DNA of 64,000 bases from Candidatus Latescibacterota bacterium (GTDB lineage: Bacteria > Latescibacterota > UBA2968), in contig OZ241986.1 in the NCBI GenBank assembly GCA_965204375.1, forward strand, positions 608,001 through 672,000, read 5' to 3'. Position numbers and translations under genes: made by a program. Shown in pieces: positions 47,704 through 55,022 of the stretch. Each line of letters begins with the position of its first letter. Positions within the stretch are counted from its first letter, which is position 1. Below the pieces are notes generated by a model. That model saw only the letters and a list, made by a program, of their open reading frames with translations. It was not told the origin of the DNA and made no database searches.

Positions 47704-49104
47704 ATGGGAAAATTAAATGTGGAAAATAGGACATTGTTCACTTATGACAACCTGTCTGTGATGCAGGGCATTAACAGTGAAACGATTGATTTGATTTACC
47801 TGGATCCGCCGTTTAACTCAAAGCGTAATTATGCAGCTCCTATTGGATCACAAGCTGCGGGAGCTGCTTTCAAGGATACGTGGAATCTTGATGATATTAA
47901 GCGCGAATGGGTAGAGGAAATAGAGGCAGATAATAAAGCGACATGGGCATCAATAGTCTCTGCTGGTCATATAAGCGGTGAAAGTACACAAGCATATTTG
48001 ACGTATATGGCGATCAGACTTATCGAGATGCGCCGAATTTTGAAACCAACAGGCAGTATATATCTGCACTGTGATCCTACGGCAAGTCACTATCTGAAAC
48101 TTTTAACGGATGCCGTTTTTGGACAGCAAAATTTTCGAGCAGAAATTACGTGGCATCGTTCTGCGGAAAATTTGTCAAACAAAAAATGGCGACGGGCTTT
48201 TGAAACATTATTTTATTATTCAAAAGGGAAATCGTGGACTTGGAATCAAATTTTTGAGCCGCTCTCTGAACAGGTATTGACGAGAGATTATCGCTTCGAG
48301 GATGGGCGGGGACGCTACAAGACGACGGCTTGCACAAACAATGCACACCGCCCGAATATGTTTTATGAGTTTAATGGCAACACTCGACAATGGCGATATT
48401 CCAAAGAAACCATGATGAGATATGATCGGGAAGGCATGTTGGTCTATAACAAGGAGGGTATCCCCCGCCGTAAACTTTATCTTTCGGATGTTCAGGGGAC
48501 AAAACTGACTAATGTATGGTCAGATATAAAAGTCTTAGCCAGTAATGCAAAAGAGAAAACGGGGTACCCCACGCAGAAGCCCCTCGCTCTTTTAGAGCGC
48601 ATTATTGAAGCGTCGTCAAATCCGGGCGATATGGTACTCGATCCCTTCTGTGGTTGTGCTACAACCTGCATAGCTGCGGAGAAATTGGAGCGACAATGGG
48701 TTGGCATAGATATTGAGCCAGAAGCCCGCAATCTTGTTATTCAGCGATTGGAAAAAGAGATTGATGTAGATGCTCTTTTCAAGGCTGGTGGTGGCGCATT
48801 GCCCGATGTAATTCATAGAAAGACACCGCCTAAGCGTACAGAAAAAGATGCCCCCCGGCGATCTTCTAATATAAAAATGAAGTTATACAAGTTACAGGAG
48901 GGACGTTGTAATGCCCCATGTGGAGAGGATGAGCAAGGGCGGGCGTTCCCTATTGATATATTTGAGATTGACCATATACGCCCCAGGTCTAAAGGCGGTG
49001 CGGATGTTGATGAGAATTTACAGTTGTTGTGTCCCACTTGTAATGGGCGTAAAGGGAATCGTACGATGGGATATTTGTTGGATCTGTTAAGTCAAGAATC
49101 ATGA
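47704..49104 (+). CDS. N6/N4 DNA methyltransferase (beta order) fused to a C-terminal HNH domain
   Basis: YLDPPF, YPTQKP, DPFCGCAT; EIDHIRPRSKGG..NLQLLCPTCN. Confidence 0.92.
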   Translation: MGKLNVENRTLFTYDNLSVMQGINSETIDLIYLDPPFNSKRNYAAPIGSQAAGAAFKDTWNLDDIKREWVEEIEADNKATWASIVSAGHISGESTQAYLTYMAIRLIEMRRILKPTGSIYLHCDPTASHYLKLLTDAVFGQQNFRAEITWHRSAENLSNKKWRRAFETLFYYSKGKSWTWNQIFEPLSEQVLTRDYRFEDGRGRYKTTACTNNAHRPNMFYEFNGNTRQWRYSKETMMRYDREGMLVYNKEGIPRRKLYLSDVQGTKLTNVWSDIKVLASNAKEKTGYPTQKPLALLERIIEASSNPGDMVLDPFCGCATTCIAAEKLERQWVGIDIEPEARNLVIQRLEKEIDVDALFKAGGGALPDVIHRKTPPKRTEKDAPRRSSNIKMKLYKLQEGRCNAPCGEDEQGRAFPIDIFEIDHIRPRSKGGADVDENLQLLCPTCNGRKGNRTMGYLLDLLSQES

Positions 49105-51887: not shown

Positions 51888-52364
51888 TTAGGTACTGCCT
51901 TTTATTCTACGTTGCATCATTCTTCTTTTTCTGTAATATTCCGGGTTATATTTGCTTCCATCAGCCTTTTGTGGTGTTTGTGTCTTGGGCCTCACAGGAC
52001 CTTTAGACCCAAACCATTCTGACAGCTTATCTTTCGCCAGATTCGCTGTTTCAGCCGTCATATATGCTCTGGCAAGACCCAAAGCTGTTGCTAAAACTCC
52101 CGCATCATCTCCATACCCAACCAGAGGTGTCATATCAGGGACCGCATCTATTGGGATAATAAAGTATGCTAAGGCACTATAAATCGCGGTTTTTACCGTG
52201 ATCGGTGTTCCTTCTTGCTTTGCGGTATAGTAAAGCTCTAGCGATTTTTTAACAACTGCCCTACCCGCGGTAGTAGCTTGATTAGACAGTTTATCCCAAA
52301 ATCCACGCTCCGTGTACTTCTCTGGCTCTGGTAACGAGGGACTCTTACGATTTCCGCTTTGCAT
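51888..52364 (-). CDS. YkvA/DUF1232 membrane protein with basic C-terminal tail
   Basis: FWDKL, ALAYFIIPIDAVPD..GYGDD; GGAGG RBS before ATG 52364. Confidence 0.85.
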   Translation of the reverse strand: MQSGNRKSPSLPEPEKYTERGFWDKLSNQATTAGRAVVKKSLELYYTAKQEGTPITVKTAIYSALAYFIIPIDAVPDMTPLVGYGDDAGVLATALGLARAYMTAETANLAKDKLSEWFGSKGPVRPKTQTPQKADGSKYNPEYYRKRRMMQRRIKGST

Positions 52365-52422
52365 CTCTACCTCCGGTGTGAGTGTTAGCCCATAATCCGG
52401 CACCCCGGTTTGGGTGCCGGGC

Positions 52423-52561
52423 GGTATCAACACTCGCGCAGTAGAGATGCGGGAAGTCCTACTTATTTACCAAGGCTTGGGGAGCTACCCCTCGCCTATG
52501 TGATTGGTTATTGTATTCGGCAGGCCACCCGACATACGGGCACCGCACGAGCGTTGATACC
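52423..52561 (-). ncRNA. Candidate structured RNA, copy 1 (139 nt)
   Basis: 20-bp closing stem with G-U pairs on the minus strand, inner hairpins, promoter directly upstream. Confidence 0.65.
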
Positions 52562-52564
52562 TGT

Positions 52565-52593
52565 ATGATACAATAGCCTTTTCTGTAAGTCAA
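52565..52593 (-). promoter_or_regulatory. Sigma70-type promoter for RNA copy 1
   Basis: TTGACT-17 nt-TATCAT. Confidence 0.7.
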
Positions 52594-52747
52594 AACATAA
52601 ATCCCTATCTAATCTGATTGACGGGTTTTGTGTTGTACAACACGAGGGGCACATGTTGCCTGCCATAGTTTGACATTTGATTCTGGAAATCCTATTTTGT
52701 TACTTTGAAATAGGCAAGGCATGCGCTGATTCTAAAAGAAGATAAAG

Positions 52748-53236
52748 ATGGCTAAGGGCGACCATATTTGTGTAAGTAGAGGACTCTACTGGCATCATGG
52801 AATTGATCTCGGAAATGGCCGAGTCATACACTATACGGGGTACCCTGGGGATAAGGGCAGAAATGCCGCTATTAAAGTTGAAAGTATCCAAAAATTTGCC
52901 AAAGGAAGGGAAATTTACTACGGAGACTCTAAAGCGCAATATTCGCATGATGAAATTGTGAGGCGTGCCGAAGGTCGGATTGGTGAAGAGGACTACGATA
53001 TCGTCGGCAACAATTGCGAACATTTTGTGAACTGGTGCAGAACTGGCCGACATAAGAGCCAGCAAGTCAATACGGCGGCGGCTTTGGTTACACCTGCTGC
53101 ACCTTACGCGTACCTTAAACAGAAATTCGGTGCTCCGACACCTCCGGCACCACAAAAGGCTGACGGCAGTAAATATAATGCGGAATATTACAGAAGAAAA
53201 AGAATGATGCAACGCAGAATAAAGGGTAGCACCTAA
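52748..53236 (+). CDS. LRAT-like (permuted NlpC/P60) protein with basic C-terminal tail
   Basis: KGDHI, YWHHGI..G.VIHY, NNCEHF. Confidence 0.88.
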   Translation: MAKGDHICVSRGLYWHHGIDLGNGRVIHYTGYPGDKGRNAAIKVESIQKFAKGREIYYGDSKAQYSHDEIVRRAEGRIGEEDYDIVGNNCEHFVNWCRTGRHKSQQVNTAAALVTPAAPYAYLKQKFGAPTPPAPQKADGSKYNAEYYRRKRMMQRRIKGST

Positions 53237-53642
53237 ATCATTTAATCGGTCGATTTTTTTTATGAATGAGTGTCTAAATGGAGGCAGAAATACATTTTTC
53301 AGGGCCTGTTTTTGGGCGTATTTGCACAAAAAAACGCCAATTTGCGGGCCTGGGTACACTGAAAAAGGGCAATTTAGGGGCTTTTTACAATATTCGAGGC
53401 GAGCAAGGCGTAGTCTGTTTTTGTGTTGGAAGGCGCTGAACAGCCATAAATGGGTCAGGTAAAGGAAAAAAACAGCGTTTCTGTGGTGACATGGTAGCAA
53501 AAGGGCGTGTTTTTGCTCAAAATGCCCCGCATGCGGTTCCGCCCTCAGTGTGTCATCCTGCCCAAGTAAGCGGACATGTTGGGTGCAAAAGCCCGTCGAT
53601 CGTTCTGATTAACGGGCTTTTGTGTTGTACTCGAGGCGGGTT

Positions 53643-54335
53643 TTACCGCCCTTTTTCCCATATTGCGTTATAGGCGGGGCTGGTGTTCGTGAACTCTGTT
53701 GTCAGGCTTATCCTGCCTTTTCCGAGGGTCTCCACAACGATTAACAGCTTTACCTCGGTCACATTATCCGGGAAAGGTTTTCCCCCCAATCCTCTCATGT
53801 CTTTCCATTCGGATATGAACGCCTGACCGTCGTAATTCAAAAACCGCCTTGTCCAATCCTCTGGCGAGTCCCAAGCGTTGGTATTAAATGACCGCTGCAT
53901 CCGGTAGCCGCCTGAGCTGTACCGCTCGGCCAGTTGCTTTTTGATTGCCTGGTATTTAGGCATGATATTCTCGCCACCATTCCCCACGTCCATTTCATCC
54001 GACCAGGCCCACAGCTTAAAAAGCCCGTGATCGGGCGTGAAATATAGCCGAAAGAGGGTAAAGTCAGCCTCTTTCGGCTCCTCAGAAAAGAGGCCGGAAA
54101 ACAGATCGAGGGCTGATTTTTCCGGGGGTGTATCAGCCAGTTTAAGTATAATGGAGCGTCGATAGCCCACCGAGTCAATGTCTGTTATCTCGAAGCCTTT
54201 GAGGGCCTTAACTTCATCAAAAGGCATCCCCATATAGAACTCAAAGGAATAGACGCCGGGCGGTTTTGTCTGGGCGGTCGCTGATGCGACAAGTAGCACC
54301 AGTGAGGTCAATAGTGTGCGGGTTAAAGTCAACAT
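53643..54335 (-). CDS. Secreted hypothetical protein
   Basis: Signal peptide MLTLTRTLLTSLVLLVASATA-Q; AAGGAG RBS. Confidence 0.65.
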   Translation of the reverse strand: MLTLTRTLLTSLVLLVASATAQTKPPGVYSFEFYMGMPFDEVKALKGFEITDIDSVGYRRSIILKLADTPPEKSALDLFSGLFSEEPKEADFTLFRLYFTPDHGLFKLWAWSDEMDVGNGGENIMPKYQAIKKQLAERYSSGGYRMQRSFNTNAWDSPEDWTRRFLNYDGQAFISEWKDMRGLGGKPFPDNVTEVKLLIVVETLGKGRISLTTEFTNTSPAYNAIWEKGR

Positions 54336-54370
54336 GTGTTGCTCCTTTGTGTTGGGTGGTGAGTACACAC

Positions 54371-54405
54371 AAAAAGCACCTGGAAACACGCGCTCCAGGT
54401 GCTTT
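54371..54405 (-). terminator. Terminator-like hairpin in the leader of 53643..54335
   Basis: Minus strand AAAGCACCTGGA...TCCAGGTGCTTTTT. Confidence 0.6.
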
Positions 54406-54512
54406 CTATTTTTCCCAAATAGTCTTGAAAAACTTCTACAGTTTTCGCGTGGACTTTTCGCATGGTGGACTTTCTGCGAGGTGGTTGTGGCACTCAAAAT
54501 TGAGTGCCGGGC

Positions 54513-54651
54513 ACAGTCCACCGTCACGCAGAAAGATGCGATTAAGCCCTGCCTGTTTACCCTAGATCGGGGAGCTACCCGTCACCGTTAATGGGCTATT
54601 GTATTCAGCAGGCTACCCGACAAAACGGGTATCTGCCTGACAATGGACTGT
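54513..54651 (-). ncRNA. Candidate structured RNA, copy 2 (139 nt)
   Basis: Same architecture as copy 1 with a different but pairing closing stem. Confidence 0.65.
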
Positions 54652-54655
54652 TGCC

Positions 54656-54684
54656 AGAATACAACCACAGGCAGGGGGTGTCAA
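54656..54684 (-). promoter_or_regulatory. Sigma70-type promoter for RNA copy 2
   Basis: TTGACA-17 nt-TATTCT. Confidence 0.7.
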
Positions 54685-54692
54685 TATAAATA

Positions 54693-55022
54693 TCACGTAT
54701 CGAACCAACCGACCATTTGCTCAGCGGCTTGCTTTTTCGCCTTTGGTGTGATGTGCATTGCAATAGCGGCGACTGTGCTGATCAGTACGCCGAGGTCGTC
54801 TGTGAACCCGAACACTGGCGTTGGGTCAGGTATGGCATCAATGGGCGATATGAAATAGGCCAGTGCCGCGAAAACTGTGGCCTTCGCCCACTTGGGCGTA
54901 TCCTTTGATTCGGCAGTGTAATACAGCCATAGAGCTTTTTCAATCACATCGCGGCCAGCTTTGCGAGCGAATGTTTTGATCTTCTGCCAGAAATCGGCCT
55001 CGCTAAAATCCTTGTCGGCCAT
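54693..55022 (-). CDS. YkvA/DUF1232 protein without the tail
   Basis: FWQKIK, ALAYFISPIDAIPD..GFTDD; GGAG before ATG 55022. Confidence 0.85.
   Translation of the reverse strand: MADKDFSEADFWQKIKTFARKAGRDVIEKALWLYYTAESKDTPKWAKATVFAALAYFISPIDAIPDPTPVFGFTDDLGVLISTVAAIAMHITPKAKKQAAEQMVGWFDT

Follow-up and report, generated by a model that had tools for sequence, protein, structure and literature searches.

The DNA analysed here is a stretch of 64,000 nucleotides (nt) from the genome of a Candidatus Latescibacterota bacterium (assembly GCA_965204375.1, contig OZ241986.1, positions 608,001 to 672,000), hereafter the window, with positions counted from its first letter. Two elements of 139 nt lie on its minus strand, at 52423–52561 (copy A) and 54513–54651 (copy B), each set 3–4 nt behind a promoter whose −35 and −10 boxes are separated by 17 nt; both elements and both promoters had been described in an original prediction made from the letters alone, and direct reading bears it out. 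Copy B lies between a DUF1232 gene, before it, and the gene of a secreted-looking protein of 230 amino acids (aa), after it, while copy A precedes another DUF1232 gene. The surrounding island holds helicase, HATPase_c_3, PLD-like, ParB-HTH, methylase-HNH, HEPN, Rad52, RadC, PIN and AbiC-like genes. The elements belong to a widespread, covarying RNA family, and we read them as what is probably a cis-acting leader switch, linked to its own promoter and built much like a riboswitch, on a module that has spread horizontally. The parts of the two copies referred to below are the following, with P1 to P3 and X denoting helices and T the hairpin at the 3′ end.

52565–52593, minus strand: promoter of copy A, with −35 TTGACT (52593–52588), a 17-nt spacer and −10 TATCAT (52570–52565).
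52561 to 52423, minus strand: copy A, 139 nt.
52542–52561, minus strand: 5′ strand of P1 in copy A, 20 nt, at or adjoining the predicted transcription start.
52525–52533, minus strand: 5′ strand of helix X in copy A, GUCGGGUGG.
52458–52524, minus strand: core of copy A (P2, internal loop and P3), with the P3 tip GGGGUAGCUCCCC within it.
52524–52520 with 52462–52458, minus strand: P2 of copy A, CCUGC paired with GUAGG.
52518–52509, minus strand: conserved internal loop of copy A, GAAUACAAUA, facing AAAUAA.
52443–52457, minus strand: joining segment of copy A, ACUUCCCGCAUCUCU, placed from the tail fold described below.
52423–52442, minus strand: 3′ strand of P1 in copy A, common to P1 and a predicted alternative sequestor hairpin.
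52416–52424, minus strand: 3′ strand of helix X in copy A, CCGCCCGGC, sharing its first 2 nt with the end of P1 and overlapping hairpin T at its base.
52397–52420, minus strand: hairpin T of copy A (CCGGCACCC / GGGUGCCGG), with no U-run after it.
52361–52388, minus strand: 3′ arm of the predicted sequestor hairpin of copy A, holding the Shine-Dalgarno (SD) sequence GGAGG and the start codon (52364–52362).
51888–52364, minus strand: gene 3′ of copy A, DUF1232 (YkvA-type), 158 aa (PF06803, E 3.1e-12).
54656–54684, minus strand: promoter of copy B, with −35 TTGACA (54684–54679), a 17-nt spacer and −10 TATTCT (54661–54656).
54651 to 54513, minus strand: copy B, 139 nt.
54632–54651, minus strand: 5′ strand of P1 in copy B.
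54613–54621, minus strand: 5′ strand of helix X in copy B, GUCGGGUAG.
54548–54612, minus strand: core of copy B, comprising P2, the GAAUACAAUA loop (54606–54597) and P3 with the tip GGGUAGCUCCCC.
54513–54532, minus strand: 3′ strand of P1 in copy B.
54506–54514, minus strand: 3′ strand of helix X in copy B, GUGCCCGGC, pairing at 8 of 9 positions.
54489–54508, minus strand: hairpin T of copy B (GGCACUCA / UGAGUGCC).
54470–54484, minus strand: downstream segment of copy B, CCACCUCGCAGAAAG, complementary in the tail fold to the P1 3′ strand and the joining segment.
54371–54406, minus strand: strong hairpin with U-run, resembling an intrinsic terminator, between the leader of copy B and the next open reading frame (ORF).
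53643–54335, minus strand: gene 3′ of copy B, 230 aa, with a signal-like N-terminal segment and no Pfam family.

On the minus strand both copies fold into stable structures, with minimum free energies (MFE) of −66.9 kcal/mol for copy A (z −6.73) and −60.1 kcal/mol for copy B (z −4.67), and 0 of 200 shuffles were as good. The plus strand folded less well (−55.7 and −53.1 kcal/mol, respectively). The folds, and a comparison of the copies, also confirmed that the closing stems of ~20 bp differ in sequence and yet pair. P1 begins 3 nt past the −10 box in copy A, where the best −35/−10 match ends, and 4 nt past it in copy B; the conserved interior motifs were found where the original prediction had placed them. 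In copy A the GGG of GUCGGGUGG has a second possible partner in the upstream CCCG (52540–52537).

A third copy (copy C) was found in the window's genome by BLAST, and a covariance model built from the three, R1, detected eight copies there, scoring from 172.6 to 65.7 bits; the two copies first noticed are thus real but are not the genome's full number. A 22-base pattern taken from the conserved interior was then scanned over a collection of species-representative genomes, where it matched at least 118 stretches against about two expected by chance (our own estimate). Eighty of these loci were fetched, and R1 matched 77 of them; three loci hold two copies, giving 80 matches. The covariance model, a check of the kind that the original prediction had proposed, thereby confirmed homologs in metagenome-assembled genomes (MAGs). 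Since 77 of the 80 matches cover model positions 1–168, 3′ hairpin included, hairpin T is part of the conserved element, which measures ~165 nt, and the GGCAC...GUGCC hairpins earlier noted behind the window copies (52399–52418 and 54489–54508) are present and belong to it. The three loci without a match to the model (L013, L025 and L070; Flectobacillus, Chitinophaga and, for L025, a Flavobacteriales MAG) are probably chance hits of the pattern.

Going by record titles, most carriers are MAGs from Gemmatimonadota/Longimicrobiales, Acidobacteriota, Latescibacterota, Alpha- and Gammaproteobacteria, Nitrospirota, Chloroflexota, Spirochaetia, Binatia and further taxa. Overall about nine groups of phylum level, or more, are represented, and many carriers seem from their isolate labels to come from sponge studies. 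Among genomes related to that of the window the element occurs in 39 of 61: in 18 of 20 of the same genus, in 0 of 10 from other genera of the family, and in 15 of 15 of one genus of a neighbouring family, g7. A phylum-level sample gave 62 carriers among 151 genomes, with at most 12 copies per genome, and these carriers belong to 11 of the 46 genera sampled, a patchy spread that fits horizontal transfer. Copy A had no blastn match in the plasmid and phage collections, and the pattern scan of a viral contig collection gave 0 matches. In one genome of the same genus (G016) four copies score identically at 80.2 bits (C1:304985, 631097, 2368376, 2611352 and others), which suggests that the element rides there on a recently multiplied repeat or insertion sequence.

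Covariation was assessed by counting pairs in an 80-row alignment (78 distinct sequences) for the helices of the model, with helix X added as a pseudoknot. Paired cells reached 89.1%, compared to 68.2% in shuffles, and the covariation score 0.498, compared to 0.172; none of 500 shuffles gave values as high, and with slid controls the score was 0.036–0.059. These counts lean towards the model helices, because the alignment was fitted to them, whereas helix X was outside the model. Both sides change in all 18 pairs of P1, which has a mean length of 18.7 bp over 77 distinct stems; P2 is near invariant, and P3 and the upper part of hairpin T covary. The same 77 stems hold 129 G.U pairs compared to 4 A.C mismatches, indicating that the fold belongs to the sense-strand transcript and neither to duplex DNA nor to the template strand. 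The conserved single-stranded parts are the loop GAAUACAAcA, facing GAAUAG, and the P3 tip GGGUAGCUCCC. The strong covariation and the sense-strand wobbles bear out the claim of a functional minus-strand RNA fold.

Helix X, which the original prediction lacks, pairs GUCGGGnnn with nnnCCCGGC and crosses P1. Its 3′ strand lies just past P1, at a distance of 0–1 nt from the P1 3′ strand in 55 of 65 sequences, and overlaps hairpin T at its base. The helix was scored in an anchor-based table that assumes no structure. Positions 1–8 pair in 72–73 of 73 distinct sequences, with six pair types at position 8, where pairing reached 98.6% compared to 64% when shuffled; position 9 paired in 79% compared to 45%, and 0 of 2000 shuffles reached either value. 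The CCCG/CGGG hairpin of the original prediction fared less well. Its motif is present and the hairpin could form in 65 of 72 sequences, but it would use the G-run of helix X, and its extending pair was paired in 86% compared to 81% of shuffles (21 of 2000 shuffles reached the observed value), which is weak support; the G-rich arm instead forms the covarying helix X. P1 and X could be present together in a pseudoknot, where on rough geometry a T-X-P2-P3 stack could lie alongside P1, or they could be alternative states. A further helix, AUGuCGGG/CCCGCAU, which RNAalifold proposed from the three-copy alignment, was rejected: CGGG is constant, but other phyla have CUCAC or UCCAC in place of CCCGCA.

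The position of the promoter is conserved along with the fold. In 65 of 85 distinct upstream regions the best −35/−10 match within 60 nt ends 3–7 nt before the first P1 pair, where about 11 would be expected under uniform positions (our own estimate). This indicates that the promoter belongs to the unit and that the transcript should start at the foot of P1. On the other side, an ORF of at least 50 aa preceded by an SD sequence lies on the same strand within 200 nt of 57 of 67 distinct elements, at a median distance of 28 nt, and within 60 nt in 48 cases. The families encoded include DUF1232, BACON_2, PEGA, TbpB-like, astacin, DUF805, glycosyltransferases, CsgG, DUF932 and Lar. The sole trait common to the products is a signal-like N-terminus, assigned by a crude rule to 37 of 57, with a lipobox in 20. 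All-against-all clustering of the ORFs within ±3 kb of 75 copies revealed no constant protein neighbour; what it returned was an IS1595-like transposase, present in 20 loci but not at a fixed place, and some smaller clusters of genes from mobile elements.

In genus g7 the element occupies one conserved locus in all 15 genomes searched. The order in two of these loci (L148 and L151) is HlyD-like, PpiC-like isomerase, element, terminator, and one or two CPBP-type membrane protease genes, as named by eye, and a CPBP-type protease ORF recurs downstream in most of the fetched loci of this type (L145–L149, L151, L152, L154 and L156–L158). The next gene starts 190–380 nt past the element, and the locus (L145–L158) looks like one for peptide export and immunity. 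Two loci from MAGs titled Candidatus Latescibacterota, L078 and L048, are identical in their P1 sequence and downstream terminator to the g7 locus, which belongs to the window's own order; this likeness hints either at a phylum in common or at recent transfer. A mini-ORF of 7–9 codons, MF(xF)KN(T/V/A)F(A/T)-stop, was found directly 3′ of elements of the copy C type (~1719–1748 of L133, the copy C locus, and in L141, L142, L150 and L153). Its versions differ by 6-nt indels that keep the frame and by changes that look synonymous. A pyrimidine-rich stretch resembling a terminator comes after it, and it may be a leader peptide.

The leader downstream of the element was compared with the two strands of P1 across 63 loci with distinct stems. 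The P1 3′ strand is predicted to pair with its own downstream leader at a mean of −20.3 kcal/mol and with the leaders of other loci at −17.9 kcal/mol (Mann-Whitney p 3e-4; 0 of 10000 permutations), whereas the P1 5′ strand shows no preference for its own leader (−17.8 compared to −18.0 kcal/mol). Together with the same-strand ORF so close behind the element, this complementarity favours the cis leader, one of three options that the original prediction had left standing. In 27 of 27 copies from the window's genome and its relatives, 10–26 of the 28 nt of the P1 3′ region pair downstream when the 5′ strand is absent, a count made without a control; in 7 of the 27, which is an undercount, a U-run comes straight after the outermost alternative pair.

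The copies of the window's genome were also folded from the joining segment onward, giving the tail folds already referred to. In these a long hairpin appears, tipped by T, whose 5′ arm consists of the CCCGCAUCU-type segment together with the P1 3′ strand; the conserved CGCAUCU is the 5′ base of this alternative terminator or sequestor. The hairpin runs directly into a U-run in L137, L138 and L139; in L135 and the g7 loci a hairpin with a direct U-run sits inside the fold, and the g7 loci show a CCCGCAUCC...GGAUGgAGCGGG-U-run layout when read by eye. Copy A (L134) ends differently. Its joining segment ACUUCCCGCAUCUCU, unpaired in the P1 state, becomes the 5′ base of the alternative hairpin, and joining segment and P1 3′ strand together pair with the sequestor 3′ arm (GCAUCUCUAC with GUAGAGAUGC), burying the GGAGG and AUG of the DUF1232 gene. 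The alternative hairpin of copy C likewise buries the SD sequence and AUG of its 7-codon mini-ORF. Hairpin T itself does not qualify as an intrinsic terminator, since what comes next is GGAUUAUGG (copy A) or ACAACCACC (copy B) and not a U-run; the U-runs follow the longer alternative hairpin. At full length the MFE fold is the P1 state in L132 (copy B), L134, L137 and L139 and the alternative state in L133, L135 and L138, a split that is expected of a bistable leader.

What is seen directly are the covarying helices, the placement of the promoter, the ORFs that follow and a downstream leader complementary to the P1 3′ strand; from these we infer transcription, switching and an effector along the following lines. 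The leader would be transcribed from its own sigma-70-type promoter, starting at the foot of the ~19-bp P1. P1 would enclose the core, made of P2, the GAAUACAA/GAAUAG internal loop and P3 with its GGGUAGCUCCC tip, and the nnnCCCGGC segment 3′ of P1 would either pair back to the core GUCGGGnnn as helix X or join the short hairpin T. With P1 intact the downstream gene would be read (ON); were the downstream strand to displace the P1 5′ strand, the long hairpin would form and turn the gene off, acting as a U-run terminator in some copies and burying the SD sequence and start codon in others. As the P1 3′ strand is shared with the terminator or sequestor, P1 would serve as anti-terminator or anti-sequestor. 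Which state wins is probably decided by the core and helix X through their binding of a ligand or factor; they might, for instance, lock the linker and thereby block nucleation of the T-tipped hairpin. Promoter and leader would move together, as a module, to unrelated cargo in many phyla, much of it exported or membrane-bound.

Terminator-type and SD-type platforms behind one conserved core are a known riboswitch pattern. The element resembles ON-type riboswitches with pseudoknots extending into the expression platform, in that P1 encloses a covarying core, the P1 3′ strand is shared with a terminator or SD hairpin, both platform kinds stand behind one core, and a helix links the core to sequence 3′ of P1. 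It differs from them in suggesting no ligand, in a P1 of ~19 bp that begins at +1, in regulated genes without a common function, and in a promoter that is part of the horizontally spread unit. Of the features that define a riboswitch class, a covarying 5′-leader domain was found and an alternative-pairing platform is predicted, but the genes do not form a coherent set, and the context of the 51 downstream ORFs offered no candidate ligand.

No catalogued RNA accounts for the element, as the original prediction had supposed: at gathering score, Rfam 15 gave 0 matches in the window and only tRNAs in 18 homologous loci, with no Y RNA or relatives. At relaxed thresholds the only family matching the element was sRNA-Xcc1 (RF02221), a small RNA (sRNA) family, which matched seven copies at 17–30 bits compared to a gathering score of 53 (27.7, 28.6, 25.5, 25.5 and 17.1 bits in the window's genome; 29.7 and 27.6 in relatives). 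While these scores fall below gathering, the cmscan alignments preserve the core architecture. The comparison was made by way of the Rfam model alignment. In it, the 9-bp closing helix GgCcGGggG/CccCCgGcC of sRNA-Xcc1 aligns with helix X, its inner stem corresponds to P2, and both have the AAUACAAUA loop; the match further covers a hairpin standing where P3 does, the GAAU of the return strand and a CACCC past the closing helix. It differs in being only 87–88 nt long, in lacking P1, with a local second hairpin where the P1 3′ strand would be, and in a P3 loop of 3 nt compared to a P3 domain of ~33 nt with the GGGUAGCUCCC tip. From this alignment the two cores look homologous, and the element would be an extended form with an added P1 and a large P3. 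A search for RF02221 in 132 genomes of the window's class gave 0 matches, as did control genomes, making this a weak test.

According to the accessible parts of the published reports, sRNA-Xcc1 is carried by mobile DNA: in the Xanthomonas cassette of widest distribution it precedes symE and is read against the cassette promoter (bioRxiv 10.1101/2025.06.18.660453), and one Xylella genome holds seven copies, five of them grouped in an island (PMC12189769). No cis switch is proposed for it in the accessible text of PMC2996969, PMC12189769 or bioRxiv 10.1101/2025.06.18.660453. The element family is absent from Rfam 15 and from the literature searched, in which no longer form of sRNA-Xcc1 was found either; subscription journals and supplements lay outside the scope of that search. 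In the window's genome two copies, L137 and L138, stand in tandem 476 nt apart (C1:1318035–1318686), with a small ORF after each and, in place of a clear promoter, a 10-bp hairpin of the AGCCCUGACG...CGUCAGGGCU type with a T-run before each; this cassette-like layout recalls the tandem Xcc1 copies reported in Xylella.

Several other known systems were compared with the element. Similar promoters reused before non-homologous genes, sometimes in distant bacteria, have been described as putative mobile promoters; by the description in the accessible text these are sequence-similar promoters in general, whereas the element combines a covarying RNA fold with an alternative-pairing platform (PMC3575422). 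Retron msr-msd and Y RNA-like RNAs also have a long, variable closing stem formed from both ends, but the RNA of the element continues into an mRNA; no reverse transcriptase-like protein was recognised by eye among the 15 commonest neighbour clusters, and no search was aimed at a Ro/Rsr-type protein. A phage C4-like antisense RNA, the second option of the original prediction, found no backing, with no match at gathering score in the window and none at E ≤ 10 in 52000–55000. An Frpo-type promoter in single-stranded DNA does not fit the wobbles on the sense strand or the promoter boxes, which stand upstream of the stem in ordinary duplex form. An attC/integron site was rejected on the misfit of the stem ends to the known RYYYAAC/GTTRRRY cores, and an invertible promoter on arms that differ between copies and wobble pairs that are strand-specific.

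The U-run hairpins that resemble terminators behind many copies of the window's genome and of g7 are also what a stand-alone, trans-acting sRNA like sRNA-Xcc1 would have, its terminator ending the sRNA and the downstream genes being incidental or separately expressed. The distance of the next gene in g7 points the same way, as does the weak relative itself, which in the accessible text of its description gave a single Northern band of ~100 nt, with ends mapped to 88 nt (PMC2996969). We nevertheless hold this reading to be unlikely. In other phyla the closeness of the same-strand ORF leaves no room for a second promoter. The 5′ arm of the terminator is the P1 3′ strand, so that the terminator cannot form while P1 stands, which is the layout of an attenuator and not of a plain sRNA end, and in copies A and C the alternative hairpin buries the SD sequence and AUG, with no U-run end. 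Terminated riboswitch leaders, moreover, also show as small RNAs on Northern blots. The placement and length of P1 and the lack of kinship among the cargo genes are in turn what would be seen in a constitutive, portable expression module without sensing, consisting of a promoter and a 5′ helix that protects against 5′-end decay, or with P1 as an RNase III site. In this last form, cleavage would free a stable core RNA and leave an mRNA capped by T, and any switch would be a one-way timer. A 5′ stem-loop is a known stabiliser of mRNA and P1 is about as long as an RNase III substrate; a general-purpose module predicts cargo that is unrelated between loci. The reuse of similar promoters before unrelated genes also fits, as far as the available account goes (PMC3575422). 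Such a module, however, needs neither an invariant internal loop, nor a conserved P3 tip, nor a covarying helix X that joins the 3′ flank to the core, nor the three-way complementarity of P1 5′ strand, P1 3′ strand and downstream leader, and we judge it improbable.

The genomic setting of the window copies, with its RadC, Rad52, orphan methylase-HNH, ParB-HTH, PIN and AbiC-like genes, the transposase-rich neighbourhoods elsewhere and the five copies of identical score in one related genome would suit an element that acts as DNA: a single-stranded promoter or origin in the leading region of a conjugative element, an invertible promoter between inverted repeats or a miniature transposon. This is very improbable in the face of the wobble counts, which mark the sense strand, where a single-stranded DNA promoter would fold on the template strand. 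Copies from one genome have different arms around a conserved interior, whereas transposon or recombinase sites show the reverse; helix X and P3 vary in concert as RNA helices do, downstream of an ordinary duplex promoter; and the plasmid, phage and viral collections held no match. More remote still is a retron-like RNA copied by a reverse transcriptase encoded elsewhere, with P1 as the a1/a2 repeats, the third option of the original prediction. Its appeal lies in ends that pair in a long, variable stem, as in msr-msd RNAs. By contrast, the core is conserved across phyla, unlike that of retron RNAs, and the element is joined to an SD sequence and ORF downstream; no reverse transcriptase was recognised by eye in the 15 commonest neighbour clusters listed (no Pfam scan of all neighbours was made), and none was among the Pfam hits on the window neighbours.

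The leader switch that we prefer to these alternatives must itself be set against several observations. Chief among the reasons for caution are the long P1 and the absence of a cargo theme. At ~19 bp, P1 is far longer than the usual riboswitch P1 and might be too stable for modulation by a ligand. The downstream genes, tabulated as had been proposed, share no function: the 51 ORFs fall into 30 Pfam families, each found in at most two of them. This points to no ligand and sets the family apart from most metabolite riboswitches. Two of the eight copies in the window's genome, L137 and L138, have no convincing promoter at the usual site. The complementarity of the downstream leader is moderate on average (2.5 kcal/mol) and strong in a subset of loci; the best duplexes cover the SD sequence or AUG in 47 of 57 cases, a count without a control that short leaders make likely to be high by chance. 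P1 and X cross with a gap that is mostly 0–1 nt, so that both a pseudoknot and alternative states stand, and transcript starts, transcript ends and switching are all predicted. Finally, the weakly related sRNA-Xcc1 is, in the available text, a discrete sRNA of 88 nt (PMC2996969).

Some neighbouring genes of the window deserve mention in their own right. At 47704–49104 (plus strand) a single ORF encodes an N6/N4 DNA methylase domain joined to an HNH nuclease domain at the C-terminus. An LRAT-family protein (52748–53236, plus strand) and the DUF1232 protein behind copy A (51888–52364, minus strand) are encoded on opposite strands and are otherwise unrelated, yet have in common a C-terminal tail of ~45 aa, ...PQKADGSKYNxEYYRxxRMMQRRIKGST, at 64% identity (E 6e-16). 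The two DUF1232 proteins of the window are 41% identical.

One further suggestion, which we put forward tentatively and would not rate as likely, is that the family represents a new class of riboswitch or switch-type sensor RNA, in which a core formed by the pseudoknotted X, P2, loop and P3 senses one common signal and of which sRNA-Xcc1 would be the minimal form. What this core reads is possibly the condition of the 5′ end of its own transcript, located at the foot of P1. On this view one promoter-leader module, spread horizontally in sponge-associated and other bacteria across many phyla, would have brought dozens of unrelated exported and membrane proteins under that signal. If the leader-switch reading is true, the family would be a widespread structured regulatory RNA new to Rfam 15, found across nine or more groups of phylum level, with as many as 12 copies in a single genome, and unusual in its ~19-bp closing helix that begins at the transcription start, in a second helix that crosses the first, and in a promoter that moves with the leader. 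It would also give the poorly understood sRNA-Xcc1 family a testable function. A ready-made promoter-plus-switch of this kind could pass between phyla and attach to new cargo. A large set of uncharacterised exported proteins in host-associated bacteria would, moreover, be marked as co-regulated by a single input.

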